Notes: generated from the letters alone by a model not told the origin. A stretch of DNA of 24,544 nt, filler included, from an uncultured virus (IMG/VR IMGVR_UViG_2049941000_000719) (2 parts of one record of this genome joined end to end with filler, not necessarily neighbours in it); one strand, 5' to 3'. Counted from the first letter of the whole stretch, positions 2,014-23,937 are shown. Numbers and translations: made by a program.

Positions 2014-2409
2014 ATGGTTTTGACAAAATCCAACATGATTTATTCTTATATCAATTGGCTCAACAATCAGGTNNNNNNNNNNGCGGATATCAGCGGATGG
2101 ATTGAGATTACGACACCTTTTCTTGACGGTGATAACGACTGCATACAAGTGTATGCGCGGATGGAGTCTGACAAAATTATACTATCAGATTTTGGTGATA
2201 CTATCAGAAGTATCAGATTTTCCGGTTGGGTTATCCCTGAAGAGCATTTCACACGCTGTCTTGAGATAACGACAAACAGGTTCGGCATCAAGTGTGACAA
2301 TGAATATGTACTTTCTGCCGAGGTAACTTTAGACAAATTGCCCCAAAAGCTCAACGATCTGATTCAGTGTATTGCCGCGGTGAGCAATTTCCCCATTTTC
2401 GCGAGGTGA
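2014..2409 (+). CDS. DUF1828-family protein (stand-alone)
   Basis: WIEITTPFLDGDNDCIQVY...LSDFGDT...FGI...LIQCIAAVS matches the DUF1828 pattern. Confidence 0.75.
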   Translation: MVLTKSNMIYSYINWLNNQXXXXADISGWIEITTPFLDGDNDCIQVYARMESDKIILSDFGDTIRSIRFSGWVIPEEHFTRCLEITTNRFGIKCDNEYVLSAEVTLDKLPQKLNDLIQCIAAVSNFPIFAR

Positions 2410-2437: not shown

Positions 2438-5400
2438 TTATATGAGATTTATGAAGTCAAAAGGATTTGACTTCTTAGTTTTTGATTTCTGTTTTGATTT
2501 TTTATTCGATTTTGCGCTTGATTTTGTGTTTGTTTTGGTATTTGGTTTTGTGTTTGATTTGGATTTCGACTTGGATTTGGGATTGGGTTTGGTTTTGGGA
2601 TTGCTTTTTGCGGTCGGGAATTCAAACGGGTTTGTGAATGGGTTTGTGAATGTATTGTCTGACTTTAAATCAGGCATGTTCTTCGAGATTGTGTTTCCGA
2701 ATTCATAGAAAGTCTGTTTGTTTGCCGGAAGTTCATAAACGGGGGTGTATTCCGCAGTAAATGCTTCCCATCCGCGAACAATCGGGATTTCTACGTTTTC
2801 AAGATTAAACACATTCGCGTTCAGTCTCTTTTTCTTGTCTTTGTTTTTGTCGATATCGATTTTTATGGTTCTCCTCTTCTTTGTCGGCGGTGTTATGGTT
2901 GTTGGGGGGACTATTATGGGGGGGGATGATGGNNNNNNNNNNGGGTCTTGATGGTGTATATGGGGGGTATTTTGTCGTAGGTGTCGATGGCACGGATGGT
3001 ATCGATGGCGGTGATTTAGTTGTCGGTGTTGACGGCACGGATGGCGGTAATTTTGTCGTTGGTTTTGACGGTATGGATGGCGGTGATTTGGTTGTGCCTT
3101 TTTTTGAATACCTGCCGGAGTTGTCCCCTGACATAACCCTCTTAGGACTGCTTGGCGAGAAGTAATCCGGCAATTTATAATCTAAGTCAAACGGGTTTTT
3201 GTATGTCTCTTTAGATTTTTCCTCTGTTTTAAATGTATATAATGGGCTTGCCGCAAACGGGTTGCCCGATTCATATCGTTTTGGCAATTTGTGTGGTATT
3301 GAGGATATGAGACGTCTCGATTCCCAATCGTGTATAATTTTATCATTCTTATATTGTTCTTCTTGGATCATATCATATAATTTAGATGCCATGTTGAATC
3401 TTTGTTGATTTAGTTGCGATTTTTGATTGGCTTTTGTATTTATATATTTAGATACTCGATTCTTAATTCCTGACAATGCTTGTCTTTTATAAAATACATT
3501 GTCTTCTAAAAATGCAAGCTGAGTTTCCGTAAACAAATCATCTAATTTATAGGAGTGCTTTTCTTTTTTTGATGGGGTATATCCTTTATTGAAGACATTA
3601 ATTTTTACATCTGTTTCCAAAGCCCCTGTTGGAATGACACCTAATGTATCCACAGCCACACGCTTATCATTGTGTATGGTAAATGCAGTCTTATCTATTA
3701 TTTGGAGTTGATTATTAGGTCTTGTTGTTCCCTCTTTTTCAGCCCATATTTTCTTATGTTCTGCGGTTTTTGCAGATATTGCGGCATATTGATCTGGTTT
3801 TAGATTCTCTAAGATATACTCTTTTGTTTTTGCCTCCCCCATACCAAAAGGAACCTGACCGATTTCTCGAGTACTCAGTGTGTTATATACAATAGGGGGT
3901 TTATATTCGGCGGGTATAAAATTAAGACCAAATGATTTTTTGATTTTATCATAATCATAATCGGTGCGGTCAAAATGCAGAGATGCTTCATCTGGACTAA
4001 GTGATCCTGAAAATATATCACTTTCTTTATACTTAGTCGGTCTGACAGTTATTACATTTTTACGAATCTCATCTGAAGGTTGACTTTGTACTCTTATACC
4101 TGCCATTTTGACATTATCTGAGACTTCAATGCCTTGGTTTTCAATTCTTTTCATTGCGCCCCCTTCTCGACCAAACATATCTATAAATTCCTGTCTCATT
4201 TTTGGATTATCATAATCATATTGCATACTTGGGAATTTTCTTGCACCGGAAACAAGATCCCATTCCGCAAGAACCGTCGGGGGAATGTATCTGTTACGCT
4301 TTCTGAAAGCATTCCATTCATCGAATTTGATCAGACTCTTTCCGCTGAGTTTTGCACCTACAAGCATCGGTATGATTTCGTGAGACATGATCTGTTGTGG
4401 GGTTGTTTCATTATTTGCAACCCTTGTCGCAACGGATTGAATATACGTTGCCGTCATGAACAGTCCTAATGGGACACCTACAACGGTATCGGAATTAAGG
4501 TTATTGCGGATTGTCTCAAGAATGGATATTACTTGAGGATCTTTCTTGAAAGTCTTCATTGTCGCATTAATTGCTTTTTCTCCCTGTTCAGGTGATGAGT
4601 TTATGCCGAATTTATCAATGCGGATGACCTCACCTTTGAAGGGTTTGGTTGTGCCGCCGTGCAGTTTCTTAAATTGCGCATAATTATCCATTATCGCATC
4701 GTATGCTTCATCTCCGTAGGTTTTCAGGAATTTTTGGAATGACTTTAATGCTTTCAGACCCTCTTTTCTTTCTTTTGCATTCGGGGACAGCAACATCTGA
4801 TTAATCTGATCCATTGTTCCGAATGAAAAGTCCTGTAAGTCTTTCGCACGGTCTTCTTTACGCGGCTGTACCCATCCTACACCGGGCTTGCCCTCGCCGA
4901 ATGCTTCCGAGTATTTTAAATACACTTTCGGGCGTGTAAAGTTAAATAATGCCGTTTCTTTGTTGATATTCTGTTGAGCCATGGTCGTGGTTGTAACATC
5001 CGTACCCTCGATTTTTGCGGGTAACTCCGTCCGTATACCCATGCCGGAGAATAGATCCCCCGCACCAAACTGCTCCATAGAGTGTGCATCAAAAAATTCC
5101 TCTCCTGTGTCTTTTAACAGAAGTTTATTTCCTTTAATATACACAACTTCGCGTCCTTCTATATCGTTAATTCTTTTTGCAAGAGCCTCAATGAATTCCT
5201 TTGGGTCTTTGACGAATAAATCAAAATCATTCGGGTTTCTTGANNNNNNNNNNTTTTTCGCGGAAATTACTTTTTGTACATGAGGTTCCAAAGACTGAAT
5301 AACAACAGGACTTGCATGTTGAATATGTTTATTTAAATCCGTTATAATACTGAATCTGTCAAGTGCATTTTGAAGTGATTTCTGATATGACTCATTATCT

Positions 5401-8400
5401 TTAAATCCATACATCATATAATCTGTAGGATCCTTTTTACTCTCTTCTAATAGTTCATTTACAGCTCCGCGAACATATGAAGTCTCTATACCTGATTTAG
5501 GAATATATGCCTCTAACTGTTTTCCTGTGTTCTGGTCAATTAAAAGAACACCTGATGAAAGTTTTGGATCTCCGAAATATAATCTATTGGCGAGAGGGAA
5601 TTGTGAACCACTGACTTTAGTAACTATTGGTTTTACAATATCGAGATTCTTTACACGTCTTACTACTGAAAGAGATTTAGCCGTACCTGACGGTAAGTCT
5701 ACCTTAGTATATTGTAAACTTACCGGACTTCTCGGCAGATTTCCTGTGATTTCATCCATGTACTTTTTGCTTTTCTGTATCAGTTCTTTGTTTTTCAGTG
5801 GATCGACGACAGTATGATATACACCGGGTAATCTTTTTGACCCCGCTCTCATTGCCGCACCGAGACCTCCCATTAATGCGTATGATGCCGCATACTCGGC
5901 ACCGTAACTGACGGGGTTTTCATAGAAATCATCGTAGTTAAAGAGTCCGTAGGCTAAAGGAGACCCGTTTTCGAGTTTATCTTTCCAATAGTCCGCGGTG
6001 AGCTTTGATTTTGTCTCTCCTCCCCACAGGGTATTCCAAGCATCTCCCATATCGTCATGCAACATGCGGATTTGTCTCGTACCGGGGGTAAAGTAGTCAG
6101 CAACGTTCAGCGTTTTTCTGACTAAATTGGGGTCTGGTAAAACCGTGTGAACAGTTTCCTTTGCGGCATAGGGGATTCCTCCGTATATCTCTTTCTCCAA
6201 CTGCTCTTTTTCCCGTGCTTTATCGGAGAGTCTTTGATATTCGTTGTTCAGGTCTTCCTGAGCTTTAATCATCTCCTGTTCAACTTCGTTGAACCTGTTT
6301 ACCGCTTCGGGTGTTGCTCTCGATGACCACATAAGGTTAGTATATACATCTACGTTTCTGTCGGGGTTGTCCTTCTCCGAGTAGATGGTTTCACGGGTTG
6401 TGTCTGTCGGTATCAGATTGCCGCTTTTGACAAGCTCATCCACGGTATCGGAATATTTCTTTGTCGTCGAATACAGCCCGCCTACGGGTTTCCCCGCGGA
6501 ATCCGTGCCGCCTTCGGTGAGCAGTCCGATATTCTGTAATATCTCGGACATTTCCCTGTCGACATCCATCTGATCTATGATTGTTTTCGTCCTCTCTTTC
6601 AGAGTGTGGTCACGTTCCGTGTACTTCGGCACATCCGAGATGTTTTTCTGTTTCAGGTTGAGTGCTTCGCGGGTGTTTTCCGCCGCCGATATAAACGGAG
6701 ATTTGCCCGGAAAACTTTCGGTCGGCGCCGCTCTTAACGGTGATGTATCTCTGAATCCGCTGTCGGCATCCGCGAAATTACCGCCGAAGTCCGGCTGTGC
6801 ACCGGCATTACCGGCATAACCGCCGTCGGAGAATCCTGCCTCCGTGAAATCCTCTCCGCCCGCTCTGTCCGCGNNNNNNNNNNNNNNNNNNNNNNNNNNN
6901 NNNNNNNNNNNNNNNNNNNNNNNNNNNNNNNNNNNNNNNNNNNNNNNNNNNNNNNNNNNNNNNNNNNNNNNNNNNNNNNNNNNNNNNNNNNNNNNNNNNN
7001 NNNNNNNNNNNNNNNNNNNNNNNNNNNNNNNNNNNNNNNNNNNNNNNNNNNNNNNNNNNNNNNNNNNNNNNNGTTGTCCTCCCGCATAAGAGTAGTCTGC
7101 GTCTTCCGAGTCTTCGCCTTCGGCACCGAAATCTCCGTATTCCTCATCGTCGTAATCTCCGTCTCCGAGTTCTTCACCGCCGTAACCTTCTCCGCCGTAA
7201 TCTTCTTCGCCGTATTCGTCCTCGTCGAAATCTCCGCCCGCATTTCCCGCAAAGTCTCCTCCGCCATAGGACTCTCCTCCGTAACCAGCATCGGGCATTG
7301 CGGATGTGCCCGGCATACCTTTCATGCGATCAACGGTCTGCATGAAATTATCCTGAGCACCGTCAAAACCTTCAAAGCGCTGTAATCGGGACATTGCCGA
7401 CTCGTCCACCGGCTCTTTCAGCTCCGCCATCGCCTTTTGATAATCCGCATTATCCTTGGCAAGCGCATTATCGAGTTCATTACCCATCTCGTCTATGGTA
7501 TTGAAATAATCTTCAAATCCGTCAGACGCGCCGTTCTTTGCCGCATTAAACTGTGCCAACATCTCGGCATCTCTGCGGTCTGCTTCGGCATTACGGATCT
7601 CCTCATTTGTCCTGATTGTTCCGAGTGTGTCCGCCTTGAACCTTGTCGGTGTATCGAGGTCACNNNNNNNNNNTCGGTCTCCTCATCGAGCATAACGCGG
7701 GTACTGTCGGCATCGGGAATATACGGGTTGAAGGTATCTTCGTTGAACGGGATGTCGAGGTTTTTGAGCGCCGAAGGCAATCCTTCCGCGGAATCTCCGG
7801 ATGCAACGACATCACCCGACCATCCGTAAATTACAAAATTGCCGCCGTTATCTCCCGTGCGCAGTGTGTATCTCTGTTTGCCGTCACGCGAGATCAGGAT
7901 ATATTCATTGGTTGCGGAATCGGGTGCGGCTTTAAATCGGCTGTATGTTGTGGAGTCTCTGCCGTCCGCCATCGCCTCCGCCGCACTTTCTCCTCCCGCA
8001 CTTGTCCAGTCCGTGTTGCCGTACCTGTTTTCCGTTGCCGCCTGCTCTCTCATGAAGGCATCGGATGACAAATCCCTCTTGTTTTCGTCGTTGACTTTTA
8101 AAATAGATTCAACATAATTCGGGTTGTCAAGCATCCTCTGTTGAACTTCGGCATTCTGTTTTGCAAAGAGCGCTTCCGCGTGCTTTACCTGTTCGTCTTT
8201 CAAAGGATCCGTCTCATAATATACCGTGCCTGCATTTTTATCGGGGACAAATTTGGAATCTCCCGTCTCTTCATCTTTGACAAAGTATCCCGGAACCCCG
8301 ACATCTCCCGCTTCGACAGCGCTTTCTCTTGCTCTGCGGAGTGTATTTAATGCCTGATTGCCGCCTTCTACATTCGCAAGAACTGCCGCACGGGTATTTG

Positions 8401-9430
8401 CGTCCATGTCGCTTGCCTTATCTTTGGCATTTAATTCGGTGTAGATTTTGTCATTTTCCGTTTTATTTGGACTGGTTCTGTCCTGCTGAACATCATAGAT
8501 GGAACCTGTCATTCTGTCCGCCATTGACTTTGTTGTTTTGTCATATTGTGAGACATAGATGGCGTCAGCGGATTTGTTGAAATCAGCTTTACCGACGGTT
8601 GATCCAATCTCACCGAGATAGTTAAATGCGAACTGCTTTGCGTCTTTTGGCGCGGTTGATGAAAGTGCGATATTCATAAGTTTGGTCTGGTCACCTTCGG
8701 TGACGTAACCCTTATTTACGTCATCGCGTCTGATATCCTCAATTAAACGCTGTCTGGTATCCGTATCAATGGTGGGATCTTCAATAAGGTTCAGGTGTGC
8801 TTCCCTTGCTTCTACCGTCATCGGAGTGTATGAACTGCCCTGACCGACCATTGATGAACCTGTAAGGATTGCAAAACTTCTTACATTTTCCATCAATCGT
8901 TTTTCTTTTGCTTCCTGTTCGAGTTGTTTATTGACCGAACCGGCAAGTCTTTCCAATCCTGCATATGCGGCATCATAATTTTGTGAATCTCCCTGATCCC
9001 CGATTGTCTCAAACTGTCTGAATTCTTCAGGGTCAACTACTGGTGCCTGTGCACCTTGGAGTTGATCTCCGAGATAATCTCCGATGGACACTCTCTCGAT
9101 TTTTAACGGACTATTCACACCGCCTGAATAAAATGTTACTTTCTCACTTTTTGCCGCGGCTTTTCGTTCTTCAGCTCTTTTGTTTGCCGCCCCTTCCGCT
9201 TCTCTTAATCGTTTATATTCACGTTCAAGCTCAGCTTTGGCTACATTACCCGCCAAATTTTCTCTGCGTCTTGCCTCTTTTTCGGCAATCGCTCTGCGTC
9301 TTCTGTCGGCATTTGACTGACTGATTATTGTCGGAGTCGTTGATCCCGCACTTTGCGGAGATAATGTTCTCGGACTCATCGTGTTTGTTGTTGATGTTGC
9401 CCCGTTGTTTGGTGTAATATCCTGTCCCAT
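2438..9430 (-). CDS. Giant (~2300 aa) multidomain protein; one gene joining track ORFs 7493..9430, 2805..7562 and 2438..2812
   Basis: The 1585-aa frame stays open from 7562 up to the gap at 7664 (DLDTPTRFKADTLG...RDAEMLAQF); after the 2933-2942 gap the frame PSSPPIIVPPTTITPPTKKRR...NANVFNLENVEIP runs into the 2438 ORF; GGGGGA RBS before ATG 9430. Confidence 0.75.
2900..3100 (-). repeat. Pro/Ser/Thr-rich coding repeats, TTK(S/L/Y)PP(S/Y)(I/V/T)PS.P, about 4 copies of 12-15 aa
   Basis: TTKSPPSIPSKP TTKLPPSVPSTP TTKSPPSIPSVPSTP TTKYPPYTPSRP. Confidence 0.8.
6760..7290 (-). repeat. Acidic Gly/Asp/Glu/Tyr low-complexity coding repeats (about 5-aa period), partly unresolved (N-run 6874-7071)
   Basis: YGGESYGGGDF...DEYGEEDYGGEGYGGEELGDGDYDDEEYGDF. 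Confidence 0.7.
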
Positions 9431-9445
9431 TTTGTAATTTCCCCC

Positions 9446-10012
9446 TTATCCTGAAATTGCATAAAAATTGTCCAACCGCAATACCGCTAATTTATAGCAA
9501 AAATCAAATTTTTCAATCCGGTCTTTGTATAAATTTTTGATGTAATCCCTTACATCTTCGTCCTGTATGGTGTACGGACGATTTACCGATTTGTTGAGAT
9601 AATCGATTGCCGACAGAAATTCCGCCCATTTCGGTTTGTCTGCACCTACCGATTTCGGATTTTCCAACAGCGCATTGCATGTCTCAAACACGGTCGGATC
9701 TACATTATCTATTTTGTACCATGTATGATCTTTTTCCGAGCAATCTATTGCACTTTTTAAGTGTCGATATGTCCATGTAAGATCATAACAATACGGTATC
9801 CTCAATGAATTCCTTTGGGTCTTNNNNNNNNNNTCCAACCATTGAAATTCGTATCCGAGCGATACTCCGCATCTTTGAAACAGATATATCATTGCCTGAA
9901 TACTTCGGTTTTCCGGGTATTTGTCACCGTCTCCGTCGGGATTCCTAAGTTTATCCAAAGGATATCCCAACTTATCAAGCACCAAATACAATTGTACCTC
10001 ATTATCTCTCAT
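9446..10012 (-). CDS. YwgA/SocA-Panacea/DarG-C-terminal-like winged-helix protein (copy 1)
   Basis: R..Q...YLFQRCGVSLGYEFQW...PYCYDL...WAEFLSAIDYL; clear paralog of 20137..20769. Confidence 0.6.
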   Translation of the reverse strand: MRDNEVQLYLVLDKLGYPLDKLRNPDGDGDKYPENRSIQAMIYLFQRCGVSLGYEFQWLXXXXKTQRNSLRIPYCYDLTWTYRHLKSAIDCSEKDHTWYKIDNVDPTVFETCNALLENPKSVGADKPKWAEFLSAIDYLNKSVNRPYTIQDEDVRDYIKNLYKDRIEKFDFCYKLAVLRLDNFYAISG

Positions 10013-10230: not shown

Positions 10231-10674
10231 TTACCTGTCCAACATGTATTTGGCAATCAATGCCGCAATACCGATACCGAGCATGGTTGTCCACACCATC
10301 GCGGCTTCCTGCGGTATCAGGACACCCCATATTGTCGAGGTCAGGATGCCGAGCACGATGGGCATCGTGATGTTGCCGGTTTTCTCATACGAACGATATA
10401 TAATCGCCGACCAGATGACCACGAAAAACCACGCTCCCCAAACAGTGGTCAATGGCGCTATCATCGAATATGCAAATCCGAATCCGTCAAAAACCTCGGC
10501 ATCCGGGTGATACCAATATTGGGTGAATGTTCCGTAGTTGTAATCGGGAATTGATATGTTTTCCAGATTCAATGCGGAAACAACCCCTACCTGTAACACC
10601 GTGAGTATTATCAGGATTACTAACGGTATTTTTGATTTTGCAGTTATTTTCTTTATTTTCTCTTTATCCATCAT
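10231..10674 (-). CDS. Membrane protein (signal peptide plus ~3 TM helices), putative virion-tip or assembly protein
   Basis: IPLVILIILTVLQVGVVSA signal peptide; hydrophobic C-terminal helices; GGGGAA RBS. Confidence 0.75.
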   Translation of the reverse strand: MMDKEKIKKITAKSKIPLVILIILTVLQVGVVSALNLENISIPDYNYGTFTQYWYHPDAEVFDGFGFAYSMIAPLTTVWGAWFFVVIWSAIIYRSYEKTGNITMPIVLGILTSTIWGVLIPQEAAMVWTTMLGIGIAALIAKYMLDR

Positions 10675-10692
10675 ATTCCCCCGAATATTTCT

Positions 10693-11115
10693 TCAGTCTT
10701 CAAATATCACACCGCGTACTATCTGTAATACTGCCGCACCGTACGCAAACCATGCGGGCGCCGTCAGCAGTGCACTTAACGCGGTAGGGATTCCCAAGGA
10801 CTGTAAGAAGAACGGCAAATACACCGTTGAATTATATAAAGCTCTGCCGAACATGACTAATACATCCAATATGGATGTCTCATCCAATCCCGTCATTTGG
10901 AAATCAGAGTAATTTACAGTTGATATTAATCCGGTGTCCGTTGCAAGATAGTAATTGTTTGTATCACTATCATACGTATAAGTCCAATTTCCGCTTAAAT
11001 TGGATGAATATTGAAGTCCGGGATATGCCGCTCCGAAAAGCGCCATCTCCGACATCAAAGCCACGGACAAGTTCAGGATGAATAAAAACATCGCGATTTG
11101 ATAACCTTTTATCAT
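10693..11115 (-). CDS. 140-aa membrane protein with N- and C-terminal TM helices and a glycosylatable loop
   Basis: GGAGGT RBS before ATG 11115; sequons NLS, NWT, NYS. Confidence 0.75.
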   Translation of the reverse strand: MIKGYQIAMFLFILNLSVALMSEMALFGAAYPGLQYSSNLSGNWTYTYDSDTNNYYLATDTGLISTVNYSDFQMTGLDETSILDVLVMFGRALYNSTVYLPFFLQSLGIPTALSALLTAPAWFAYGAAVLQIVRGVIFED

Positions 11116-11116
11116 A

Positions 11117-14100
11117 TTAAGACCTCCTTTGAGTGAATCCCGCAACCATTGCAATTACTATCGCAATAATAAGCCAATGCCACGGAATTGTAAGCCATCC
11201 GAGGTATGTGAAGAATATCGCACACATCGCGACAACCACGGCACCGCGAATTGCGGACATATAGCTGAATAACCCCGCAATCAGGATGAGCAGACACGAG
11301 AACAAAACATTGAGGATGTTTTTGTCCAACGGAATCGGTATAATATCCTGAGATGCCGAGACAAAGAAGTTGTTTCTTGTGACTCCCGAAACTCTGTTTG
11401 CCGAAAATTCGACTTTATACGACGTAGTATCATCGATAATCGGAAGTGTCTCGTTAATCGATTCCGTTCCGGTAAACGTTTCATCATAGACTGTTTCCCA
11501 TGTATCCGTCCGCATAATTTTGACATTCACATTTTGTGTCTGTCCCGATGAATCGGCATATTTGAACTGAATTCCGCCCGCCTGTGTATCCCATGTCGCG
11601 CCGTATGTGACGGAAGAGCTTATCGGGCTTGAGTATATGGAAATTGTCTGTGAATTCACGTTCGGTGTTGCCTGATAAATCATGATCTTTTCACCGTTGC
11701 CGACATCAAATTTATAATTTTGACCTGCCGTGAGCAAAATCACATATTTTCCGACGGAATCCGTCAAGCCTTGTGCAAAAGGACTCCATAGATTGTTATT
11801 GTAAATAGAGACATTTATTCCCACATTTCTGTATGAATCACTGTCTTTGTATGCGTAAAGGGTAAACCAGAAGGTATTTGTACTCGGCTCAGGAGCCGGA
11901 GATGTCTGCTGATAGAATGTCAGACCGTCAGTGCGACCCGCCAAGACAAAATTCCCGCTTGTAGCAATCTTTAACGCCGTTATCGGATTGTCGCTTTCTG
12001 AGGAATATTCGAGATACCAATTTGAAGATTGATCTTTACTGAATAGATACATCTTGCCGTCGGATCCTCCCGACGTTGCCCACAATGCATTACCGGCAAT
12101 ATCCACATGCCGAACATCTCCGCCCGCCGTGTATGTTCCCACTCTCGCCGCGATCTGACTGTATATGTCAGTATATTGTCCCTGTCCGATAACGGACATT
12201 GCCGCCTCGTTAGCCGTCGCTATCCCATATACCGTACCCTCACTGCCTAAGACCGCATTATAGGATGTTCCAAATCCTGAAGACGTAATCTGATCATGAT
12301 AGACTCTTGATGCCGTTGCTGTTCCTAACCAATCTCCCGCATCCGATACACTGATAGACTCTATCGCTCCTGTGACTGTTTTAGATGCCTGATACTCATA
12401 GATAGATAATGTCGGCTTTGTGCGCAGTTCATATGTGCCTGTGAAATCAACCGCGTTATTGTATGTTGTCTGTGTGTGCTGCGGAGAACTGCCTTGATAA
12501 TTATAGAATAACCATGTCTGTCCTGTTGAGGACGGCTGAATTTGCAACAAACCCTCAGACACCCAAACGTCATTTAAATTACTGCCTGTAGATCCGCCGC
12601 CAATAAATAATTTGTCTCCGACAACCCAACTACATGCCGCATATCGCGCCGCCCATCCCGCCGAGGCAGTCTGTTGAGTCCATGTTTGACCAAAATCCTC
12701 AGACACCCAAATATCTCTTAAATTACCGCCTGAAAATCCCCCGCCAATAAATAATTTATCTCCGACAACCCAACTACATGCTAATTGCCTTGCAGACCAT
12801 CTCGCCGAGGCTGTTTGTTGAGTCCATGTAATACCTAAATCCTCAGACACCCAAACATCCCTAAAATAATTACTGCCTGTTCTTCCCCCGCCAATAAATA
12901 ATTTATCTCCGACAACCCAACTACATGCTGCTTGNNNNNNNNNNNNNNNNNNNNNNNNNNNNNNNNNNNNNNNNNNNNTTAATTAATTAANNNNNNNNNN
13001 NNNNNNNNNNNNNNNNNNNNNNNNNNNNNNNNNNTCTTTCCCGTTCAGATATTTCACGATAACCATCATGAATCCTCCCGAAATTCCGAGGATTTCAAGC
13101 ACAAACAGATATATCCCTAAATAAATATCCGAAGGGTTGCAGACGGAAATAACCCCTAAAGCAAAGGTTATTCCAATCAATCCTTCAAGATATGCTGACA
13201 GTGCGGTTTTCATATCCTCTTTGGTTTTACCGAATTCCTTCCAATCCTCTATTAATCCCATGATATTCCCTCTTCNNNNNNNNNNACATATCGCGCCGCC
13301 CATCCCGCCGAGGCAGTCTGTTGAGTCCATGTAATACCTAAATCCTCAGACACCCAAACGTCATTTAAATTACTGTCTGTAGATCCGCCGCCAATAAATA
13401 ATTTGTCTCCGACAACCCAACTACATNNNNNNNNNNTCTCCCCCCGCCAATAAATAATTTATCTCCGACAACCCAACTACATGCTGAATGTCTTGCAGAC
13501 CATCCCGCCGAGGCAGTCTGTTGAGTCCATGTTTGACCGTAATCCTCAGACACCCAAACATCATTTAAAGTACTGCCTGTAGATCCGCCGCCAATAAATA
13601 ATTTATCTCCGATAACCCAACTACATGCTGATTGTCTTGCAGACCATCCCGCCGAGGCTGTTTGTTCTGTCCATACTGCTCCTAAAGTATCCAAATAATT
13701 ATATGCCCCTGTTGTATTCAATGATGAATCTGAAACGGCAATATAGTCATAAACCTGTTCCCAAAGTTCATCTCCCAGAGTTGTATTTGATAGTATAATT
13801 GCCTCAGTCTGATCCGGATTGGTATATAGAATCAAAAGGTTTTGGAAATCCGCAAAATTTGTATTAAACGAATTATAATTATTAACTGCCCAATAATCAT
13901 CTGTTGTCGTGATTACATATTTGTCAAGTTTAGATGTGCCTGACTGAACAATTGCATAATCATCATTAGGATCGATAACTCCGAGATCAAATGTGCCCGC
14001 AGTTGAATTGTAATCAAGATTACCATTTGAGAGATATTTATGAAATATGCCGGATTCTACAATCAGCACGTTGCCGACATCCGAGATATCAATATCCGTG

Positions 14101-14492
14101 ATATCCGTAAACTGTTCAGTCCATGTTATTTGCCCATCGTCAATATAATAGACCTCGTTTCCATCAGTATAAAGCGCCGTTTTGCTCCCGTCAGCTGTGC
14201 AGACAATTTCCTGAACGGCTCCCGATATGCTGAATGTGTTTTGCTGTGTGCCCTGTGAATCATACACATACAGCGTAGAGTCCGCACCGTCAGCAATTGC
14301 CGCATAAATTATGCTCCCATCCTCAGCCATATCAGCTGCTAAGACATCGCCGATCTCCTTTGTCCATGCGACCGATGTGTCCGCGGAAACAATACCGACG
14401 ATGCCAAAAATCAAAATACAGACTAATGCGATGTGAAAAAGAGAGTTATTGTCTGTTGTTGTTATTTTTGTTGATTCTTTTTTTTTATACAT
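11117..14492 (-). CDS. Large membrane-anchored adhesin or receptor-binding protein: signal peptide, WD40-like blades, Kelch/Asp-box repeats, more WD40-like blades, two Ig-like domains, three C-terminal TM helices; broken by assembly gaps
   Basis: Track ORFs 13365..14492 and 11117..12850 share the same 48-aa repeat; GGTGAT RBS at the 14492 start; ILIFGIVGIVSA signal; C-terminal TM trio. Confidence 0.75.
12979..12990. other. Artificial contig linker TTAATTAATTAA inside an N-run
   Basis: Six-frame-stop spacer flanked by Ns on both sides. Confidence 0.85.
13036..13261 (-). CDS. Small 2-TM protein, family B (3' partial; fragment probably misplaced in the scaffold)
   Basis: GAGGGA RBS, MGLIEDWKEFGKTKEDMKTAL...; bounded by gaps on both sides. 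Confidence 0.6.
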
Positions 14493-14496
14493 AATA

Positions 14497-14667
14497 TCAC
14501 CAAACTATCAGGGCATATATCATTCCTACCAGTGCGGCACCGCAGAATGTGCCGCCGACCTGACACACTGTGTCGATGAGTATATCCGCAAAGGTCATCT
14601 CGTGAAGATGTCCCTCGTCATCTATGTAAAACATGTTTTCATATCGTTTCGGGCTGAGTATTTTCAT
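14497..14667 (-). CDS. 56-aa protein with a C-terminal TM helix (MKILSPKRYENMF...ALIVW), not in the ORF track
   Basis: GGGGGA RBS; its stop overlaps the GGTGA RBS of the adhesin gene. Confidence 0.6.
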   Translation of the reverse strand: MKILSPKRYENMFYIDDEGHLHEMTFADILIDTVCQVGGTFCGAALVGMIYALIVW

Positions 14668-14848
14668 TTGATTTTTCCCCCAAGATAATCTGCATTGCCG
14701 TAAAACATATCCCTGTTATACAGGTGAATGCAAAGACGCACATTCCGAGATCGGTTACCGTCTGTATCATTACAATTGCCGGAAGTACCCATAAAATAAT
14801 ACAGAATACAAGTTCTGCTATTTTATTCTGCCCCGCATATTCGCTCAT
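14639..14848 (-). CDS. 69-aa 2-TM membrane protein
   Basis: Two hydrophobic helices; overlaps both neighbours as in an operon. Confidence 0.6.
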   Translation of the reverse strand: MSEYAGQNKIAELVFCIILWVLPAIVMIQTVTDLGMCVFAFTCITGICFTAMQIILGEKSNENTQPETI

Positions 14849-15095
14849 TTGTCGTGTTCTCCTGACATAAATAACATAGGAAATTACTCATAACCAGTAT
14901 TGTTGTAATCATGAATCCATACATGGTCAAAACACACAGGTTTTGGCACCAGTTTTCGATGTCGATTATGAAATTGAAATGGAAATTTAACGTAAGTGTG
15001 AGTATTGCCGCTATGTAATAGCACAACCATCCCAAAATATATATTTTGAATACCGACACAAGTTCTTTTTTGGTAACATTCTGTTTTAGTTTCAT
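14823..15095 (-). CDS. 90-aa 2-TM protein, family B
   Basis: AGGGGG RBS before ATG 15095; TKKEL...YLCQE. Confidence 0.65.
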   Translation of the reverse strand: MKLKQNVTKKELVSVFKIYILGWLCYYIAAILTLTLNFHFNFIIDIENWCQNLCVLTMYGFMITTILVMSNFLCYLCQENTTNERICGAE

Positions 15096-15115
15096 TATTG
15101 CCCCCCTTTTGAGTA

Positions 15116-15391
15116 TTATACCGTCACGGTTGCGGTTTCCGGTTTGACTAACTCGTCCTGACACAGATAGTATATCACCATTGCCAACAGAGATGTTACG
15201 AACGCTGAATACATTAATGCCATTCCGACAATCCAACTCATAAAATCAAATGAATTTACGAGACAGTATTCCAATAAATGAACGGCTGTATAAAATCCCA
15301 TGCCAATCTCCAAAATTTTGAGACAGTCTTTTAAAAATTTCAACATATCCGCTTTATCTATCAATTTATAAGGTCTATTCAGTAATCTCAT
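15116..15391 (-). CDS. 91-aa 2-TM protein, family B
   Basis: AGGGGA RBS before ATG 15391; DKADM...YLCQD. Confidence 0.65.
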   Translation of the reverse strand: MRLLNRPYKLIDKADMLKFLKDCLKILEIGMGFYTAVHLLEYCLVNSFDFMSWIVGMALMYSAFVTSLLAMVIYYLCQDELVKPETATVTV

Positions 15392-15597
15392 TGTAATCCC
15401 CTTCAATCCCNNNNNNNNNNNNNNNNNNNNNNNNNNNNNNNNNNNNNNNNNNNNNNNNNNNNNNNNNNNNNNNNNNNNNNNNNNNNNNNNNNNNNNNNNN
15501 NNNNNNNNNNNNNNNNNNNNNNNNNNNNNNNNNNNNNNNNNNNNNNNNNNNNNNNNNNNNNNNNNNNNNNNNNNNNNNNNNNNNNNNNNNNNNNNNN

Positions 15598-15850
15598 TTG
15601 CACCGCCTGATATTGTGGCGGTGTAAATCATCCAAATGAAACAGCATATAATGAACGGCACCGGGAACCACTGCCAACACAGCAGTAGGTTCTGTATGAT
15701 GTAANNNNNNNNNNCAGGCACCCCCGAATTCACAGCCAGATCATAGAGTGTAATCGTGACCAGATCATAAAGTGCTGTATAAACGAACATTACCGCCGCT
15801 ATCGCAAAAACGACGGTAATTCCTGAGTATGCTACGTCTCTTAATGTCAT
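15598..15850 (-). CDS. Hydrophobic hairpin membrane protein (3' partial), possible minor capsid protein
   Basis: Two hydrophobic helices; ATGA overlap with the upstream gene. Confidence 0.65.
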
Positions 15851-16119
15851 ATTCTATCCTCCCCATCATCGGAATTACCGAGGAAAATCCAAAGTATGGG
15901 CGCGATGATGCACAGGATGAAGATGAAAAGCATCGTGGACAGCCCTATTCCGAAGAAATCATAGATTGCCGTGTAATAAGTCAACCACACGTCAGAAAGG
16001 GATGTTGAGTCTAACGTGCCGTAGACCGAATAAAATACAATTCCTCCTACGTAGATAACTACGGTTAATCCGATTACGGTTGCTATAACTCCGCTGACCG
16101 ATCTGAATTCGCTTCCCAT
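15847..16119 (-). CDS. 90-aa hydrophobic hairpin protein, possible minor capsid protein
   Basis: GGAGGA RBS; two TM helices with a ~25-aa linker. Confidence 0.7.
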   Translation of the reverse strand: MGSEFRSVSGVIATVIGLTVVIYVGGIVFYSVYGTLDSTSLSDVWLTYYTAIYDFFGIGLSTMLFIFILCIIAPILWIFLGNSDDGEDRI

Positions 16120-16156
16120 TGTTTATTCCTCCTGTTTTACGATGTATTTGTGAATT

Positions 16157-16891
16157 TTATTTCAGGAACATAATTCCCACGCCGAGGAGAACACCCGCAA
16201 TAAAGCAGATTATCGGCAGATAATTTGTCGACGGACTCTGAGCTTTCTCATCGGTGACTTTTTTCATTGCTTCCTGATATCCCGTCAGGTCGGATGCCGT
16301 GAGGTTGCGCGGATAGTATCTCTGCAAGTCATACACGGGAACATATGAGAATGCTCTCATGCGGATTTCGGCATCCGACGGGCATTTTTCGATTGCCGCA
16401 TACAGTGTGTCAAAGTTTGTAATCGGCGCACGGTCTGCTTTCTTCGGTAACCACGTGAAATCAGGTTCAAACATGAATTCAGGTTCGTCGTCGGAATTCC
16501 ATGCATTTATGAAATCGAGTGTTGCGATGTTGATTTTCGGGTCAAGTGTCAATCCCCAGTAATCTACAAGGAGTTCTGCGTTACATTCTCCGAATAAGTG
16601 GTGTTCGGTCTTTTTTGCCGTCCACGTCATTCCGAGTGCGCTGAACACTCCGCTGAAATATCTCAGCCTTTTGAAAGATACACGGTGATTCTGGAATATA
16701 ATTCCAATATCTTTATCATCACCCGCACCGAATAGCGCCGTCCAGAAATATCCTTCGACCGGACCTAACTTGCTGTATCCGAGATACATTGCAAATCCCA
16801 TGACCATGATTACGAGAATCAGAAAGATTATTGCCCACGTGCTTAATCCGATTCCCAAAATGCTCTGCTCATAAACTGTGATATATGCCAT
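16157..16891 (-). CDS. 244-aa membrane protein with N- and C-terminal TM helices and a soluble middle domain
   Basis: Clean ORF, GGAG RBS, terminal hydrophobic helices. Confidence 0.75.
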   Translation of the reverse strand: MAYITVYEQSILGIGLSTWAIIFLILVIMVMGFAMYLGYSKLGPVEGYFWTALFGAGDDKDIGIIFQNHRVSFKRLRYFSGVFSALGMTWTAKKTEHHLFGECNAELLVDYWGLTLDPKINIATLDFINAWNSDDEPEFMFEPDFTWLPKKADRAPITNFDTLYAAIEKCPSDAEIRMRAFSYVPVYDLQRYYPRNLTASDLTGYQEAMKKVTDEKAQSPSTNYLPIICFIAGVLLGVGIMFLK

Positions 16892-16946
16892 ATTTTGACT
16901 CCTTTGTTATTTTGTGTTGTTTGTTTTTTATTCAGTCCGCCGTCGG

Positions 16947-17640
16947 TTAATTCCTCTTCAGGAAACTGAAAAATCCTCCGGACTTACTTGATTTTTTCTC
17001 TTCGGGGACACTCCTTAAGGCATCTACGACACCGGGGTTGAGTGTTCTGCCGAGGATGGTTGCATCTCTTAATCCGTCGCCTTCATAGGTTGTGCTCCTC
17101 GCTATGAGGTTGCGCGCCCAATGATGCAATTGGATGTAATCTGTGGGTGACATTTCGCGCGCTACCCTGCTGTCCGCAAGTGACGCGATAATGGATGCGT
17201 GCATCAAGTCCATGGCTTTTTTCTGCTGTTCGACGTTGGATGTGTTCGTCATGGTCTGGTGAATTCCCCCTTCAAACATTATCCAAAGTGCGTCCTGAAT
17301 ATACTTCTTGGATGCCGGCAGTGTGAAAGTCGTTTCTTTCTTGATGAGCGTTTCACTCAGCCCCTCACTTCCGCCGTAAGGTGTCGGGGACATGTCATCC
17401 GACATATCGGGCATATCCGACATGTCCGGATGATAGACTCTTNNNNNNNNNNTCGGCATCTTCGGGCATGTCAGGCATGTCGGGTGCGGCATCGTCTGCA
17501 TATCCCCCCATATCGGGCTGTTCGCCGTAATCGTCGTCGGGTGTTCCCCCGCGGTTTAACAAATCATTTATTGAACCGAGGCATGTGCCGTCTTCCATGA
17601 AGATGTTCCCCGATTCTTCATCAAGTAATAAATTTCTCAT
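16947..17640 (-). CDS. Hypothetical protein with an acidic (P/S)DM-repeat N-region and a C-terminal amphipathic helix (joined across the gap at 17443-17452)
   Basis: PDMPDMP before the gap and PDMSDMPDMS after it; ends KKSSKSGGFFSFLKRN. Confidence 0.7.
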
Positions 17641-17670
17641 TATATTCCCCCTTTATCTTATTTCGGTGTT

Positions 17671-18177
17671 TTACCGCACCGCGGTTGAGTATGCCGATGA
17701 TGCCAAGTTCTGTATGTGTATTCTGTACACATTGACTACACCGATGATGAGCATCATTACGGTTATCCAGATTAACCATGGCGGTTGAGTGTACACAACA
17801 GGCATCAAGTAGACCTGTGCGGACTCGTTGAGCTGAACGGTGACAACTTCATATGACCAAGATTGGACGTTGAATGCCGTAACTGACAGAAATCCGAACA
17901 TTACCGTGCTTATTGTCGCAATTATATCCGAACCGTTTTTGAGTGTCCACTTGAGCGATGCAAGGAAAAACACAAATGCGGTTACGAAAATTCCCCACCA
18001 TGACAGCATTGAGACGTGAACCGAGTCATTTCCCAAGTTGAATACGGGTTGCTGACTGAATTTCACATCCCACGGAATACTCTTGCCGACATCTTCCCCG
18101 GATGCGGGGGATATCATAAATACCGTCAACACGATGAGAAAAGCAATTGTTATCCGTGTTGCGAATTTGGAATACAT
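17671..18177 (-). CDS. 168-aa membrane protein (signal peptide plus 3 TM helices)
   Basis: GGGGTGAG RBS before ATG 18177; sequons NDS and NES. Confidence 0.75.
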   Translation of the reverse strand: MYSKFATRITIAFLIVLTVFMISPASGEDVGKSIPWDVKFSQQPVFNLGNDSVHVSMLSWWGIFVTAFVFFLASLKWTLKNGSDIIATISTVMFGFLSVTAFNVQSWSYEVVTVQLNESAQVYLMPVVYTQPPWLIWITVMMLIIGVVNVYRIHIQNLASSAYSTAVR

Positions 18178-18181
18178 CTTC

Positions 18182-18361
18182 TCACCCCGCCTTAAATTTA
18201 CTGAATACCGCAAGTATTACAGCAATTATCAATACGAGAATAAGAATTCCGAACAATCCGAAACCCGATGTTACCGTGTTTTCGATTGTATCCTGTAAAC
18301 CTGAATACGGAGATATTTCCGTTAAAATAAGATTGCTCTGAAAAAGTAAGTTAGAGGTCAT
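18182..18361 (-). CDS. 59-aa truncated paralog of the capsid-like protein (minor capsid candidate)
   Basis: GAGGT RBS; SPYSGLQDTIENTVTSGFGLFGILILVLII aligns with SPYYALQNSLETTTASGYGLIAIVIIIVAA. Confidence 0.7.
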   Translation of the reverse strand: MTSNLLFQSNLILTEISPYSGLQDTIENTVTSGFGLFGILILVLIIAVILAVFSKFKAG

Positions 18362-18375
18362 GATGTACCTCTGAC

Positions 18376-18770
18376 CTACTGCTGTCTGCGCTGAATCAGC
18401 GTGATTGCCGCCATGANNNNNNNNNNGCAGCTGCAACAATGATGATTACAATCGCGATTAAGCCGTATCCGGATGCGGTTGTGGTCTCAAGTGAGTTCTG
18501 GAGTGCATAGTACGGACTTGACTCGTTAACGGCAGGCATTGCCTGCTGAACGCTTGCGAGAATAATAACACCGATTGCGATGACGATTGCCAGTGCAATG
18601 AACGATGTAACCATTCCGGTAATCCAATCCGTAAAACCATTCTCATTGAGTCCAAGCGTCTCTCTTGTCTCCTCACGAAGACCTGAGAAAGCGCTCTCCC
18701 CCATTCTGTATGCCTGTGCTCTGCGTGCGATAAGACCGCCCGCAAGGCTGAGCTTTTCTTTAAGACTCAT
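18376..18770 (-). CDS. Putative major capsid protein of spindle-shaped-virus type (leader plus two-helix hydrophobic hairpin); real C-terminus ...IMAAITLIQRRQQ* after the gap
   Basis: Strong GGAGG RBS; first gene after the promoter motif; ~45-aa leader ending NENG|F; two hydrophobic helices; NES sequon in the loop; basic tail. Confidence 0.65.
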
Positions 18771-18810
18771 AACTTATTTCCCTCCTATACTGTCATTTGT
18801 TTGATGGAAT

Positions 18811-18917
18811 ATATAAAAATACATTACAAATTTTGGTTTGACCTCCGTATCACCATGGATTTTGAGATTCATCAACGGTCTTCGCGGCATTTTGAAAATT
18901 GTAATGTATTTTCATAT
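18811..18917. promoter_or_regulatory. Divergent promoter pair, each with TTGTAATGTATTTT plus a TATA-like box
   Basis: Motif at 18816-18829(-) faces the capsid gene; motif at 18899-18912(+) faces the family A genes. Confidence 0.7.
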
Positions 18918-18951
18918 NNNNNNNNNNAAACATATTGTGGAGGGAAATACG

Positions 18952-20136: not shown

Positions 20137-20769
20137 TCAGTAATCATATTTGCCATAATTCATAATGTCGGCATCCGTGAGATTGGCGCCGTTGATGACA
20201 TTCAATGCAATTTCATAGCTTTGTTCAAAATTGCCGAACATGGTACCTTTCTCTTTTTGGGTGAATGCTCTGATATCTTCTTCTTTTATTGCAGTCGGGC
20301 GTGACGGGCTGTTGTGCAGATAATCGACGGATGCGACAAACTCAAGCCAAACGGCATTTTGAGGTTTGGACGTGTCGGTAATCTGAACTCCGTCGGGAAT
20401 TTCGGATATTGCCCGATATTTTTCAAGACCGTTGGTTAACTCCTCCACTTCATCATCGAGTTTATACCACGTATAGTCCTTTTCATACTGTTTCAGGCTG
20501 TAATCCAAGTCATAGAGTGTATGTGCCAAATCCCTCGAATACGGGCTGATATACCATGAATAGTGATATCCCAAGAATACCCCGCACCTCTGCAACATAT
20601 ACTCCATATTTTGATAATACATCCTGTCAGCTTTGGTTTCGTAGTTAAAGCTGATTCCCAACTTTTTAAGAAGAAGATATATGAGAATTGATTCCGGTTT
20701 CATGGATTGATAGCTCCTGTTCCGTATCCGTTCATTTAATTTGTTTCCCAGAATGTTTTGGTCATTCAA
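20137..20769 (-). CDS. YwgA/SocA-Panacea/DarG-C-terminal-like protein (copy 2)
   Basis: DRMYYQNMEYMLQRCGVFLGYHYSWYISPYSRDL...WLEFVASVDYL. Confidence 0.65.
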   Translation of the reverse strand: MNDQNILGNKLNERIRNRSYQSMKPESILIYLLLKKLGISFNYETKADRMYYQNMEYMLQRCGVFLGYHYSWYISPYSRDLAHTLYDLDYSLKQYEKDYTWYKLDDEVEELTNGLEKYRAISEIPDGVQITDTSKPQNAVWLEFVASVDYLHNSPSRPTAIKEEDIRAFTQKEKGTMFGNFEQSYEIALNVINGANLTDADIMNYGKYDY

Positions 20770-21391
20770 TCATTATGCCTACCAACGGAACGGGTATTCC
20801 CGCTGACTGAAGAGCATTTGCCCGAATATCATATTCCGTGGTTCTTCTGAATCTGTAATTTTTGCCGGATTCAAACTTCTTATACATATAGTATTGAACG
20901 TCATCGGAGTATGTGATATCGCCGTCATTTGCAATTCTGTAATCCGTGTATGAATCGGGGTTGTCGGGGTATTCGATTTCGGGGTGATTGGCTCTTGCCA
21001 TCCGCAAAGCATCGCCGAACGTCTCACCCCATCCGCAGACATCCTGATTATACCTGAAAATCATGACATATGACCATTCGTGTGTTGCTTTCAGATGCGC
21101 TTTGTGTGCTTCAAGCTCTTTTTGGTATTGTGTTTTGGATATGTAATATATCTTGATGTGCATTCCGTCGGGTCTGCGCGCTTCTATAATCGCGTCCAGA
21201 GCCTCTTTCGGTGTGACCCCCGCTCTTTGTGCGATATGATATCCCCCGCACTCCAGAGAGCTTACATAGAACCCGCTGTACTGTGCATATTCATCCAAGA
21301 CCATTACGGTTGAGTCATTCATCCAGTGTTTCAATGCGTCCTTGGCATCGCGATCCGGTGCGATGTAGAATTCATCTGTGTTTTCGGTCAT
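20762..21391 (-). CDS. 209-aa hypothetical protein
   Basis: GGAG RBS; long ORF overlapping the next gene. Confidence 0.75.
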   Translation of the reverse strand: MTENTDEFYIAPDRDAKDALKHWMNDSTVMVLDEYAQYSGFYVSSLECGGYHIAQRAGVTPKEALDAIIEARRPDGMHIKIYYISKTQYQKELEAHKAHLKATHEWSYVMIFRYNQDVCGWGETFGDALRMARANHPEIEYPDNPDSYTDYRIANDGDITYSDDVQYYMYKKFESGKNYRFRRTTEYDIRANALQSAGIPVPLVGIMIE

Positions 21392-21424
21392 TTTCTGTCT
21401 CCTGTATTTTTGAAATAGTGTGTC

Positions 21425-21613
21425 TTACTTCGTTTCTCCGGGAAATTCTTCGGGGAACAATTCTCTCATCTTTTCCTCACGCTCTACCGCGGCTTTTATG
21501 CCGTCGGATGCGGCTTTGCTTATGTTGATACCGTATTCACGCGCTTTTGTCAGCAATTCCGTTGATACATACGCGGTGATTATCTTTTTTTCTTCGGCGG
21601 ACTTCGGTCTCAT
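21425..21613 (-). CDS. CcdA-family ribbon-helix-helix protein (regulator or antitoxin-like)
   Basis: ITAYVSTELLTKAREYGINISKAASDGIKAAV fits the CcdA-like RHH pattern. Confidence 0.7.
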   Translation of the reverse strand: MRPKSAEEKKIITAYVSTELLTKAREYGINISKAASDGIKAAVEREEKMRELFPEEFPGETK

Positions 21614-22173: not shown

Positions 22174-22211
22174 NNNNNNNNNNCAATATAAACTATTCCT
22201 TTAAGGAATAC

Positions 22212-23463: not shown

Positions 23464-23937
23464 TTATCTGCGGCGCTTTGCCGGGTATGAGTGGATTGCC
23501 TTTTCTCGTTTTGAAACGTAATCCTGATATCTTTGCTTTTCTTTTTTATATCCGATATCCGCCCATGCCTGTTCATATTTTCTGCGGCTGTCCGCTTCTT
23601 CCGGTGTTAATAATCCGTTACGTACATACCAGTCCATCTGAGATTTACGGGCATTAATTTCTGAAAGGTATCGTTCCTCCCTTTTTCTTACCATATCCCG
23701 TGATCTTTGTAATATTTTATGTCTTATCTTACTCGGTAAAGTATTTTCATCAACGTACCAAAGAATATCCCCTTCGTTGTAAACCAATGCAAGTCTTTTG
23801 TAATCATTATGTTCTTCTCTGTTTTTGTCGCAATACATTATACCTGTCGGGAATACATATATGCCCAAGTCAATCGGTTTTTTGGATGCTTTCTTTGCGG
23901 ATGTCTTTTTTGGAGTTGTTTTACGTATTGTTGCCAT
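23464..23937 (-). CDS. 157-aa basic hypothetical protein with a Lys-rich N-terminal tail
   Basis: GGAG RBS; MATIRKTTPKKTSAKKASKKP. Confidence 0.75.
   Translation of the reverse strand: MATIRKTTPKKTSAKKASKKPIDLGIYVFPTGIMYCDKNREEHNDYKRLALVYNEGDILWYVDENTLPSKIRHKILQRSRDMVRKREERYLSEINARKSQMDWYVRNGLLTPEEADSRRKYEQAWADIGYKKEKQRYQDYVSKREKAIHSYPAKRRR

Follow-up and report, generated by a model that had tools for sequence, protein, structure and literature searches.

Hairpin genes at the head of a block of membrane-protein genes

We analysed a stretch of DNA of 24,544 nucleotides (nt) from an uncultured virus (IMG/VR IMGVR_UViG_2049941000_000719), which we call the window, and in particular a train of genes that lies on its minus strand and runs from position 18770 down to 2805; divergently oriented plus-strand genes begin at 18838. 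An earlier annotation of this DNA (the original prediction) had proposed that the block between 10231 and 18770 is the morphogenetic module of a large spindle-shaped virus of a methanogen-like host. The window is a gapped scaffold containing 25 runs of N, mostly of 10 N each. It has no recognisable cellular genes, no tRNA genes and no Rfam families were found in it, and only three of its 33 open reading frames (ORFs) have matches in Pfam: Kelch/BNR repeats in 11117..12850 and 13365..14492, and DUF1828 in 2014..2409. Searches of PHROGs gave nothing strong for the ORFs of the block, and NCBIfam gave no match for the module. Hydrophobic segments are found in 14 of the 16 ORFs between 10231 and 18770, whereas only 2 of 19 ORFs outside the block have them. 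Four features at the head of the train, all related to one small protein, are central to our analysis:

18376..18770, minus strand: candidate major capsid protein, MCP1, with a leader of about 45 amino acids (aa), a two-helix hydrophobic hairpin and an N-E-S sequon within the loop; a run of 10 N interrupts the frame
18808..18835, minus strand: promoter element ahead of the hairpin gene, a TATA-like box plus a conserved upstream motif
18182..18361, minus strand: 59-aa half copy of MCP1 with one helix, comprising the loop and second helix only
15847..16119, minus strand: 90-aa two-helix protein (hydropathy), a distant third MCP1 paralog (profile E 6.6e-5)

The MCP1 gene can be read for 114 aa before it enters the 10-N run at 18417-18426. 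Its product consists of about 45 hydrophilic residues, a hydrophobic segment (residues 46-81), the loop with the N-E-S sequon, and a second hydrophobic segment starting at residue 94. The intact ortholog in a close relative, locus L003, is 129 aa long, and contigs from three other sequencing runs show that the true gap in the gene is 5 nt shorter than the 10 Ns that stand for it, which restores a 129-aa frame. An AlphaFold2 model made from 43 sequences (mean predicted local distance difference test score, pLDDT, 82.7) has helices at residues 3-22, 31-38, 43-77 and 86-128, the last two with pLDDT of 86-91, and so consists of a helical leader followed by a long hairpin. The loop sequon is present in 36 of the 43 aligned family members, compared to 12 sequons across the other 4667 residues, and this conservation argues for an exposed, glycosylated loop. 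The leader and two-helix hairpin with a loop sequon that the original prediction had seen here are therefore borne out by hydropathy, by the model and by the family alignment.

The promoter that it had placed directly ahead of this gene was also recovered. A GGAGG ribosome-binding site stands just before the ATG at 18770, and two upstream elements, a TTTTATATA box and TAGGAGG, can be aligned between the window and seven related loci, with GGAGG invariant in all eight–an arrangement that fits an archaeal promoter with a ribosome-binding site. A motif of 23-28 nt, consisting of AAAATTGTAATGTATTTTT and then a TATA-like box, occurs four times in the window (955-982, 18808-18835, 18895-18917 and 22207-22232) and resembles a common promoter or operator of the element. 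Its edges near 18806-18839 are the exact points at which contigs from several runs diverge.

The 59-aa ORF downstream of MCP1 matches the family profile with an E-value of 4.7e-9 (profile positions 64-108; 45% identity over 29 aa). Because the match covers the loop and second helix only, the adjacent paralog reported in the original prediction is indeed a paralog, but in this genome it is a half copy. At the same position L008 and L009 have a 72-aa leaderless hairpin (E 3.7e-9). The 90-aa ORF is more distant; its orthologs, which occur in L008 and in every one of the five longer related loci (L003, L006, L009, L010 and L011), match the family profile with E-values down to 2.1e-8 (in L011). At E <= 1 the profile revealed no large protein flanked by capsid-like helices, either in the window or in the related loci. 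The expectation of further hairpin proteins in the block agrees with this third paralog and with the abundance of hydrophobic ORFs.

By HMMER searches of 1.84 billion representative sequences we found 28 homologs of the hairpin protein at E <= 1e-3 (7 of them at E <= 1e-10), nearly all of them 65-150 aa long, and a profile search of a larger collection brought the family to 84 members, none of which has a functional name. One homolog is a hypothetical protein on a 93-kb contig of a metagenome-assembled genome (MAG) of Methanolinea. Another (P0022) has 832 aa and seven matched stretches; several hairpins, or a fusion, may make up this protein. A small residue, G or A, stands about 7 positions ahead of the first helix in family members. 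At a contig end in L010 (1-466, minus strand) there is a truncated gene for a FlaK-like prepilin peptidase, adjoining a CopG-like gene; it matches Pfam Peptidase_A24 (E 9e-8) and NCBIfam FlaK_Arch (E 7e-10, far below the cut-off of that model). A pilin-type cleavage of the hairpin leader is conceivable.

The block is conserved in related elements

One metagenome scan yielded nine related loci. The search was made with two sub-alignments of the hairpin family (A2 and A3), the full 28-row alignment being too diverse. L003, which comes from a contig of 75,318 bp, is 91-99% identical to the window in blocks at the nucleotide level and is a strain variant of it in a different record. Synteny of the block extends to eight related contigs, five of them longer and three shorter. 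Its gene order is kept in L003 and in L006-L011, at 45-100% amino acid identity: the hairpin gene comes first, followed by a membrane protein of about 170-180 aa, a soluble protein of about 181-227 aa, a 244-aa protein and the 90-aa hairpin, and then by an 83-aa protein, small membrane proteins, a Kelch protein, proteins of 153 aa and 147 aa, and a giant protein. Upstream of the hairpin gene, almost nothing is common between lineages. The accessory region of L003 contains a gene for a 58-aa CcdA-like antitoxin (7861-8037; Pfam E 3.9e-7, above its cut-off). A search for terminal direct repeats in the four short complete contigs was negative.

Near-identical DNA is present in sequencing runs of 12 studies, labelled as bovine or sheep gut, gut, or manure metagenomes; none of the runs listed as carrying it is an RNA run. 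We compared four runs to the window, one of which (X1) may be the window's own source while the others (X5, X6 and X11) are from three other studies; all four carry the element at 90-99% identity, and the lead-gene region is bridged by one contig each in X5 and X6. We found no close relatives, either of the hairpin protein or of the DNA, in phage and archaeal virus records (tblastn and megablast), and no relative in IMG/VR with four queries or among 185,579 species genomes with two. For these collections the element is undescribed, as had been proposed; the kind of virus is itself already in print.

This distribution bears on whether the element is a virus at all. The block could belong to a non-viral integrated element or be a cell-surface operon. 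Its membrane proteins and Kelch adhesin would then have a role in the cell or for a plasmid, no particle being formed, and this would agree with the lack of any recognised virus hallmark gene, with the missing relative in IMG/VR and with the homolog on the 93-kb MAG contig. We consider it improbable, however, since integrases and variable accessory regions accompany the block in at least five lineages (contigs of 19-32 kb), since it was not found in the species genomes, and since the window and L003, about 29 kb between them, show no recognisable cellular gene. The minimum size of 24 kb given for the element in the original prediction agrees with the 24.5 kb of the window and with the relative on the 75,318-bp contig.

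Other genes of the block

The remaining genes of the train, from right to left, are:

17671..18177, minus strand: conserved membrane protein with about four hydrophobic segments; ATG at 18177, the ORF listing starting at a TTG at 18213
16947..17640, minus strand: conserved soluble protein, about 227 aa, interrupted here by the N run 17443-17452
16157..16891, minus strand: best-conserved core protein, 244 aa, with hydrophobic helices at the N and C termini and a domain of about 170 aa between them
14497..15850, minus strand: several small membrane proteins; the rightmost ORF has 83 aa and two helices, and ORFs of 137, 69 and 56 aa come next
11117..14492, minus strand: adhesin-like protein, about 1040 aa; a hydrophobic segment at the N terminus, Kelch/BNR repeats, and three hydrophobic helices at the C terminus
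10231..11154, minus strand: two conserved membrane proteins, 153 aa and 147 aa, the second with about four hydrophobic segments
9446..10012, minus strand: soluble 188-aa protein, a paralog of 20137..20769
2805..9430, minus strand: giant hydrophilic protein, probably about 2200 aa, that has a low-complexity acidic stretch and a tail rich in Pro, Thr and Ser

No gene of the block varies more than the adhesin, which has 58-77% amino acid identity to L003 compared to 91-100% for most of its neighbours, as expected of a host-recognition protein. Five relatives have it as a single ORF of 1009-1062 aa; N runs and a TTAATTAATTAA linker divide it in the window into 13365..14492 and 11117..12850. The three C-terminal transmembrane helices that had been attributed to it are present, as three hydrophobic stretches within residues 506-573 of the product of 11117..12850, which is the C-terminal part of the longer protein. 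Its repeats have a period of 144 nt, and a PDB sequence search found a Kelch protein only. The linker is a six-frame stop sequence between two 44-N runs (N44-TTAATTAATTAA-N44, at 12935-13034), and together with the N runs it is the mark of artificially joined contigs, the join lying inside the repeat-rich adhesin gene.

The giant frame is broken in the window by the N run 7664-7673 into ORFs of 645 aa and 1585 aa. One open frame in L009 (17607-20300) matches both of them, and they are probably one frame of about 2200 aa. The protein has no match in Pfam, PHROGs, NCBIfam or the PDB. It is kept downstream of the block in the relatives, so the module extends to the left as far as about 2805, beyond the start that had been given for it.

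Among the other conserved proteins, the one encoded by 17671..18177 has 45-98% amino acid identity in eight related loci, and the 153-aa and 147-aa proteins have 61-100% identity in L003, L006, L009, L010 and L011. The soluble protein of 227 aa, which is a single ORF in L003 and appears in the window as ORFs of 81 aa and 184 aa, has no family match in Pfam, PHROGs or NCBIfam. The 244-aa core protein has 15 homologs, all of them metagenomic and without names, and its fold model (pLDDT 56.2) is too poor for a structure search. A second ORF of 244 aa, 15116..15850, is an artefact that reads across a 187-N run.

The 188-aa protein is found at its position only in the window and L003 lineage. It has 31% identity to the product of 20137..20769 (E 7e-23), and L008 and L009 have a copy of this family ahead of the hairpin gene. 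A second pair of soluble paralogs (18838-19356 and 19375-19782) also lies outside the membrane block. The gene for a 209-aa protein at 20762..21391 is a strain-level presence/absence difference: within 20720-21448, contigs of three other runs lack the gene and have about 35 other letters instead, and it is absent from L003 too. The piece 22184-22347, between two 10-N runs, is put beyond 23939 or 24544 by contigs from X1, X5 and X6.

Integrases, an ORF375-type ATPase and the search for hallmark genes

By scanning four of the related loci with Pfam we found a tyrosine integrase with a zinc ribbon in three (L006, L009 and L010, but not L003) and an N6/N4 DNA methylase in two (L006 and L009). Just upstream of the hairpin gene, L006, L008, L009, L010 and L011 encode a Walker A ATPase of 339-365 aa that aligns over its full length with ORF375 of Pyrococcus abyssi virus 1 (PAV1; E 5e-19, and 1e-14 to 3.5e-17 by phmmer). 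PAV1 is its only match among 50,697 virus records, and three Thermococcales plasmids are its only matches among 72,556 plasmids. In Pfam, at E-values up to 1, the relatives' ATPases have Walker-A-level matches only, and a PDB sequence search gave nothing usable. ORF375 has been described as a P-loop ATPase related to ABC transporters, of unknown role, that occurs not only in PAV1 but also in pTN2-type plasmids and in the A3 provirus of the methanogen Methanococcus voltae (PMC3543421).

None of the HK97, portal, terminase, jelly-roll, VirB4 or VirD4 families was found in the 33 ORFs of the window (Pfam and PHROG, E 0.01) or in the 129 ORFs of four related loci of about 20 kb each (E 0.001), in agreement with the original prediction, which had noted that no HK97, jelly-roll, portal or terminase genes were visible. 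A PHROG 'tail assembly' match (E 0.0059, over 30 residues of 23464..23937) is at chance level. We did not find Fuselloviridae core genes (DnaA-like ATPase, VP4-type end filament or SSV-type integrase): phmmer searches of the window and relative ORFs against all ORFs of at least 45 aa in Sulfolobus spindle-shaped virus 1 (SSV1) gave no match at E 0.01, and there was no fusellovirus PHROG.

A different machine that might use such proteins is a conjugation-like or DNA-transfer pilus, with the hairpin as a pilin of the VirB2/TrbC or Ced/Ted type and the other membrane proteins as its channel. Conjugative pilins share the architecture of a long leader and two hydrophobic helices, the Pfam family TrbC/VirB2 matches 2 of the 28 hairpin members (E 0.0013), and the R388 VirB5-VirB6 stalk chain is among the generic helical fold matches (Z 9.0). 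But the TrbC matches are at noise level among those to 34 unrelated families, no VirB4/TrbE/HerA, VirD4 or relaxase family was found in the same 33 and 129 ORFs, and the only ATPase of the relatives is of the PAV1 ORF375 type. Pilus or type IV secretion ATPase machinery, which the original prediction had named as the finding that would speak against it, is thus seen neither in the window nor in the relatives, and we regard a transfer pilus as very unlikely.

The hairpin protein compared with spindle-virus capsid proteins

Like the capsid proteins of SSV1 and His1, MCP1 is a small protein with two hydrophobic helices and a short loop, as seen by hydropathy and in the AlphaFold2 model. It has no significant similarity to capsid proteins of the SSV1/His1 type (Pfam PF06281, VP1_VP3, and PF25665, His1_capsid) by hmmscan, hmmsearch or hhalign; no hmmsearch match in either direction went below E 0.13, and VP1_VP3 is not among the 25 families listed of the 34 in the Pfam scan of 28 members. 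The similarity to spindle-virus capsid models that had been anticipated for this protein failed to appear, within the sensitivity of these methods, for SSV1 VP1 and VP3, His1 VP21 and PAV1 ORF121. The sole consistent library match is phrog_16261, 'virion structural protein', in 15 of the 28 members (best E 1e-6), a family that differs from the SSV1 and His1 capsid families. Structure searches were equally unspecific: BFVD gave six matches, all with E > 5, Foldseek found none in the PDB, and a wide VIA-align search returned generic hairpins with a top Z of 9.6. Three chance matches (E 0.4-0.49) were obtained in a sequence-profile search of the PDB. In the Atlas, which uses a protein language model, the nearest named clusters to the L003 protein and to the distant Methanolinea member are VP1_VP3 (scores of 0.84 and 0.86, with 158 and 171 shared features) and His1_capsid (0.84), results that the tool rates as leads.

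A block in which nearly all genes encode membrane proteins, with one large anchored surface protein, is also what a membrane-enveloped pleomorphic virus or a plasmid-vesicle element would have, in the manner of the pleolipoviruses or of the haloarchaeal plasmids transferred in vesicles; the hairpins would then be envelope membrane proteins and the propeller protein (the Kelch adhesin) the spike. The negative capsid homology tests are in keeping with this, as are the ORF375-type ATPases, which occur on non-viral Thermococcales plasmids as well (PMC3543421). Several paralogous small hairpins with a leader-bearing first gene are, however, the annotated pattern of spindle viruses, and the nearest named Atlas clusters are spindle capsid families. 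No Pleolipoviridae genes (VP4-type spike, VP3-type membrane protein or conserved NTPase) were found, there was no pleolipovirus PHROG, and no phmmer match was obtained to annotated proteins of Halorubrum pleomorphic virus 1 (HRPV-1) or His2, the one match to these genomes being at chance level and to an unannotated reverse-strand His2 ORF (E 8.6e-4, 14.7 bits). We therefore think a pleomorphic virus or vesicle element unlikely, if less so than a non-viral element.

A candidate virion-building module

We favour the interpretation that the minus-strand region between about 2805 and 18835 serves as the virion-building module of an archaeal virus, temperate and without a tail, that works like the spindle viruses SSV1, His1 and PAV1, and we put its probability at roughly 60%. 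Most likely, the stretch is the particle-building block of an undescribed, non-tailed and probably lemon-shaped virus of a methane-producing archaeon of the ruminant gut. The kind of virus is already known, and the habitat is one where it is hardly described. A lemon shape would be the likeliest form. The host would be a ruminant-gut methanogen, possibly one of the Methanomicrobiales, and the genome is larger than 24.5 kb, perhaps about 75 kb.

We prefer this interpretation because of the hairpin architecture, loop sequon, conserved expression signals, paralogs, fixed gene order and variable adhesin of the block itself; because of the integrase and ORF375-type ATPase of its relatives, the Methanolinea homolog, the Atlas neighbours and a gene order like those of His1 and PAV1; and because hallmarks of tailed viruses, jelly-roll viruses and conjugation were not found and the element recurs in ruminant gut or manure of 12 studies. 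As to the two wider claims of the original prediction, the morphogenetic module survives as a conserved, syntenic module of membrane proteins with a hairpin, its paralogs and an anchored adhesin; the searches for homology to SSV1 or His1 capsid proteins were negative. The archaeal-virus setting is supported by integrase-bearing relatives, a TATA box with a ribosome-binding site, the PAV1 ORF375-like ATPase of the relatives and the homolog in the Methanolinea MAG.

The first gene, with its strong expression signals, encodes a small two-helix hairpin protein that begins with a leader and bears a sequon in its loop. In such a virus this protein would insert into the host membrane with its glycosylated loop outside, may lose its leader at the small residue about 7 residues before the first helix, and would form a hydrophobic shell around the DNA. 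The 59-72-aa and 90-aa paralogs would be minor components of the shell, on the model of VP3 beside VP1 in SSV1, and the variable propeller protein, anchored by its C-terminal helices, may be a receptor-binding fibre at the particle end.

Several points weigh against this interpretation. The virus is deduced from its genes. The hhalign family probabilities are only 3.8% for SSV1 VP1, 2.2% for VP3, 0.4% for a 17-member alignment of His1 VP21 and 0.2% for PAV1 ORF121, and the best match of the family profile among 379 ORFs of SSV1, His1, PAV1, HRPV-1 and His2 (E 0.13) is not to a capsid protein. Pfam's His1_capsid matches 1 of the 28 members (E 0.049), beside the two TrbC/VirB2 pilin matches with their lower E-value. 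The phrog_16261 family is absent from all five of these viruses and has matches in Bacillus subtilis and Methanosarcina acetivorans. The helical hairpin is a generic structure, found by the wide VIA-align search in 998 PDB chains at Z >= 5. An ATPase and an integrase, two of the genes that the original prediction had suggested seeking in the flanks, are carried by relatives, and neither was found in the window or L003 (in the portion of the 75-kb contig that was read). Lastly, the window is a gapped scaffold that is probably mis-ordered at 22184-22347, with that piece apparently misplaced.

Known spindle viruses resemble the element in different ways. In SSV1 (Fuselloviridae), the first structural gene likewise encodes a hairpin with an N-terminal extension (VP1, from an ORF of 144 aa), which is adjoined by a leaderless paralog (VP3, 92 aa); the N-terminal extension of VP1 is removed. 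There are sequons in the loop, a large end-filament protein (VP4) is encoded nearby, and SSV1 has an integrase. However, a sequence link between the two was not found, the block of the window lacks a DnaA-like ATPase, it has three hairpin paralogs rather than two and lies in a genome of more than 24.5 kb rather than 15.5 kb, and the host of SSV1 belongs to the Sulfolobales. His1 (Halspiviridae) has a euryarchaeal host and a similar annotated order from ORF21 to ORF28–a two-helix capsid protein, several membrane proteins of two or three helices, and large proteins that have, in the record annotation, a signal sequence and a C-terminal anchor–and His1_capsid is among the nearest named Atlas clusters. 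Its capsid protein VP21 has no leader, is 73 aa long and reaches only the hhalign probability of 0.4% given above, and its genome is linear, with a protein-primed polymerase and no integrase. PAV1 and the pTN2-type Thermococcales plasmids share the ORF375 P-loop ATPase, with its full-length homolog in the relatives of the window, and the layout of PAV1 from ORF121 to ORF898 is also similar, with a small membrane capsid protein, membrane proteins, large lectin-type proteins and a very large coiled-coil protein. ORF121 is nevertheless dissimilar to the hairpin family, as is the gene adjoining the relatives' ATPase to ORF137.

Other close counterparts are the Eurekaviridae of Methanosarcina, which are of spindle type with two copies of the capsid gene (PMC12451623), and the spindle viruses of ANME-1 archaea, whose genomes measure between about 25 kb and 72.6 kb and carry the structural genes together in one arm (bioRxiv 10.1101/2022.07.04.498658); putative spindle contigs have also been described from digesters (PMC9796341). 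Compared by description only, the Eurekaviridae and the ANME-1 viruses are like the element in being metagenomic, and their methanogen or methanotroph hosts resemble the one proposed for it; they are unlike it in habitat, which here is the ruminant gut.

A bolder version, which we hold tentatively and think less probable than not, is that the block is the structural arm of a spindle-type lineage of about 75 kb that is specific to ruminant-gut methanogens, with a shell of three hairpin paralogs unrelated in sequence to those of SSV1 and His1 and a structural protein of about 2200 aa. If it is true, the lemon-type shells of large genomes arose from more than one hairpin family, or diverged unrecognisably beyond one, and rumen methanogens have an abundant and so far unnoticed group of viruses. 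Viruses of rumen methanogens matter for methane output, and in the accessible text of two rumen or archaeal virus catalogues the word 'spindle' does not appear (PMC11542040, PMC13465236). The hairpin family (at least 84 members), the 244-aa core protein and the variable adhesin provide conserved markers by which the group can be sought in metagenomes. The adhesin, with its variable propeller, is a candidate for host recognition, and the hairpin family extends the hairpin shell proteins past the reach of current Pfam models.

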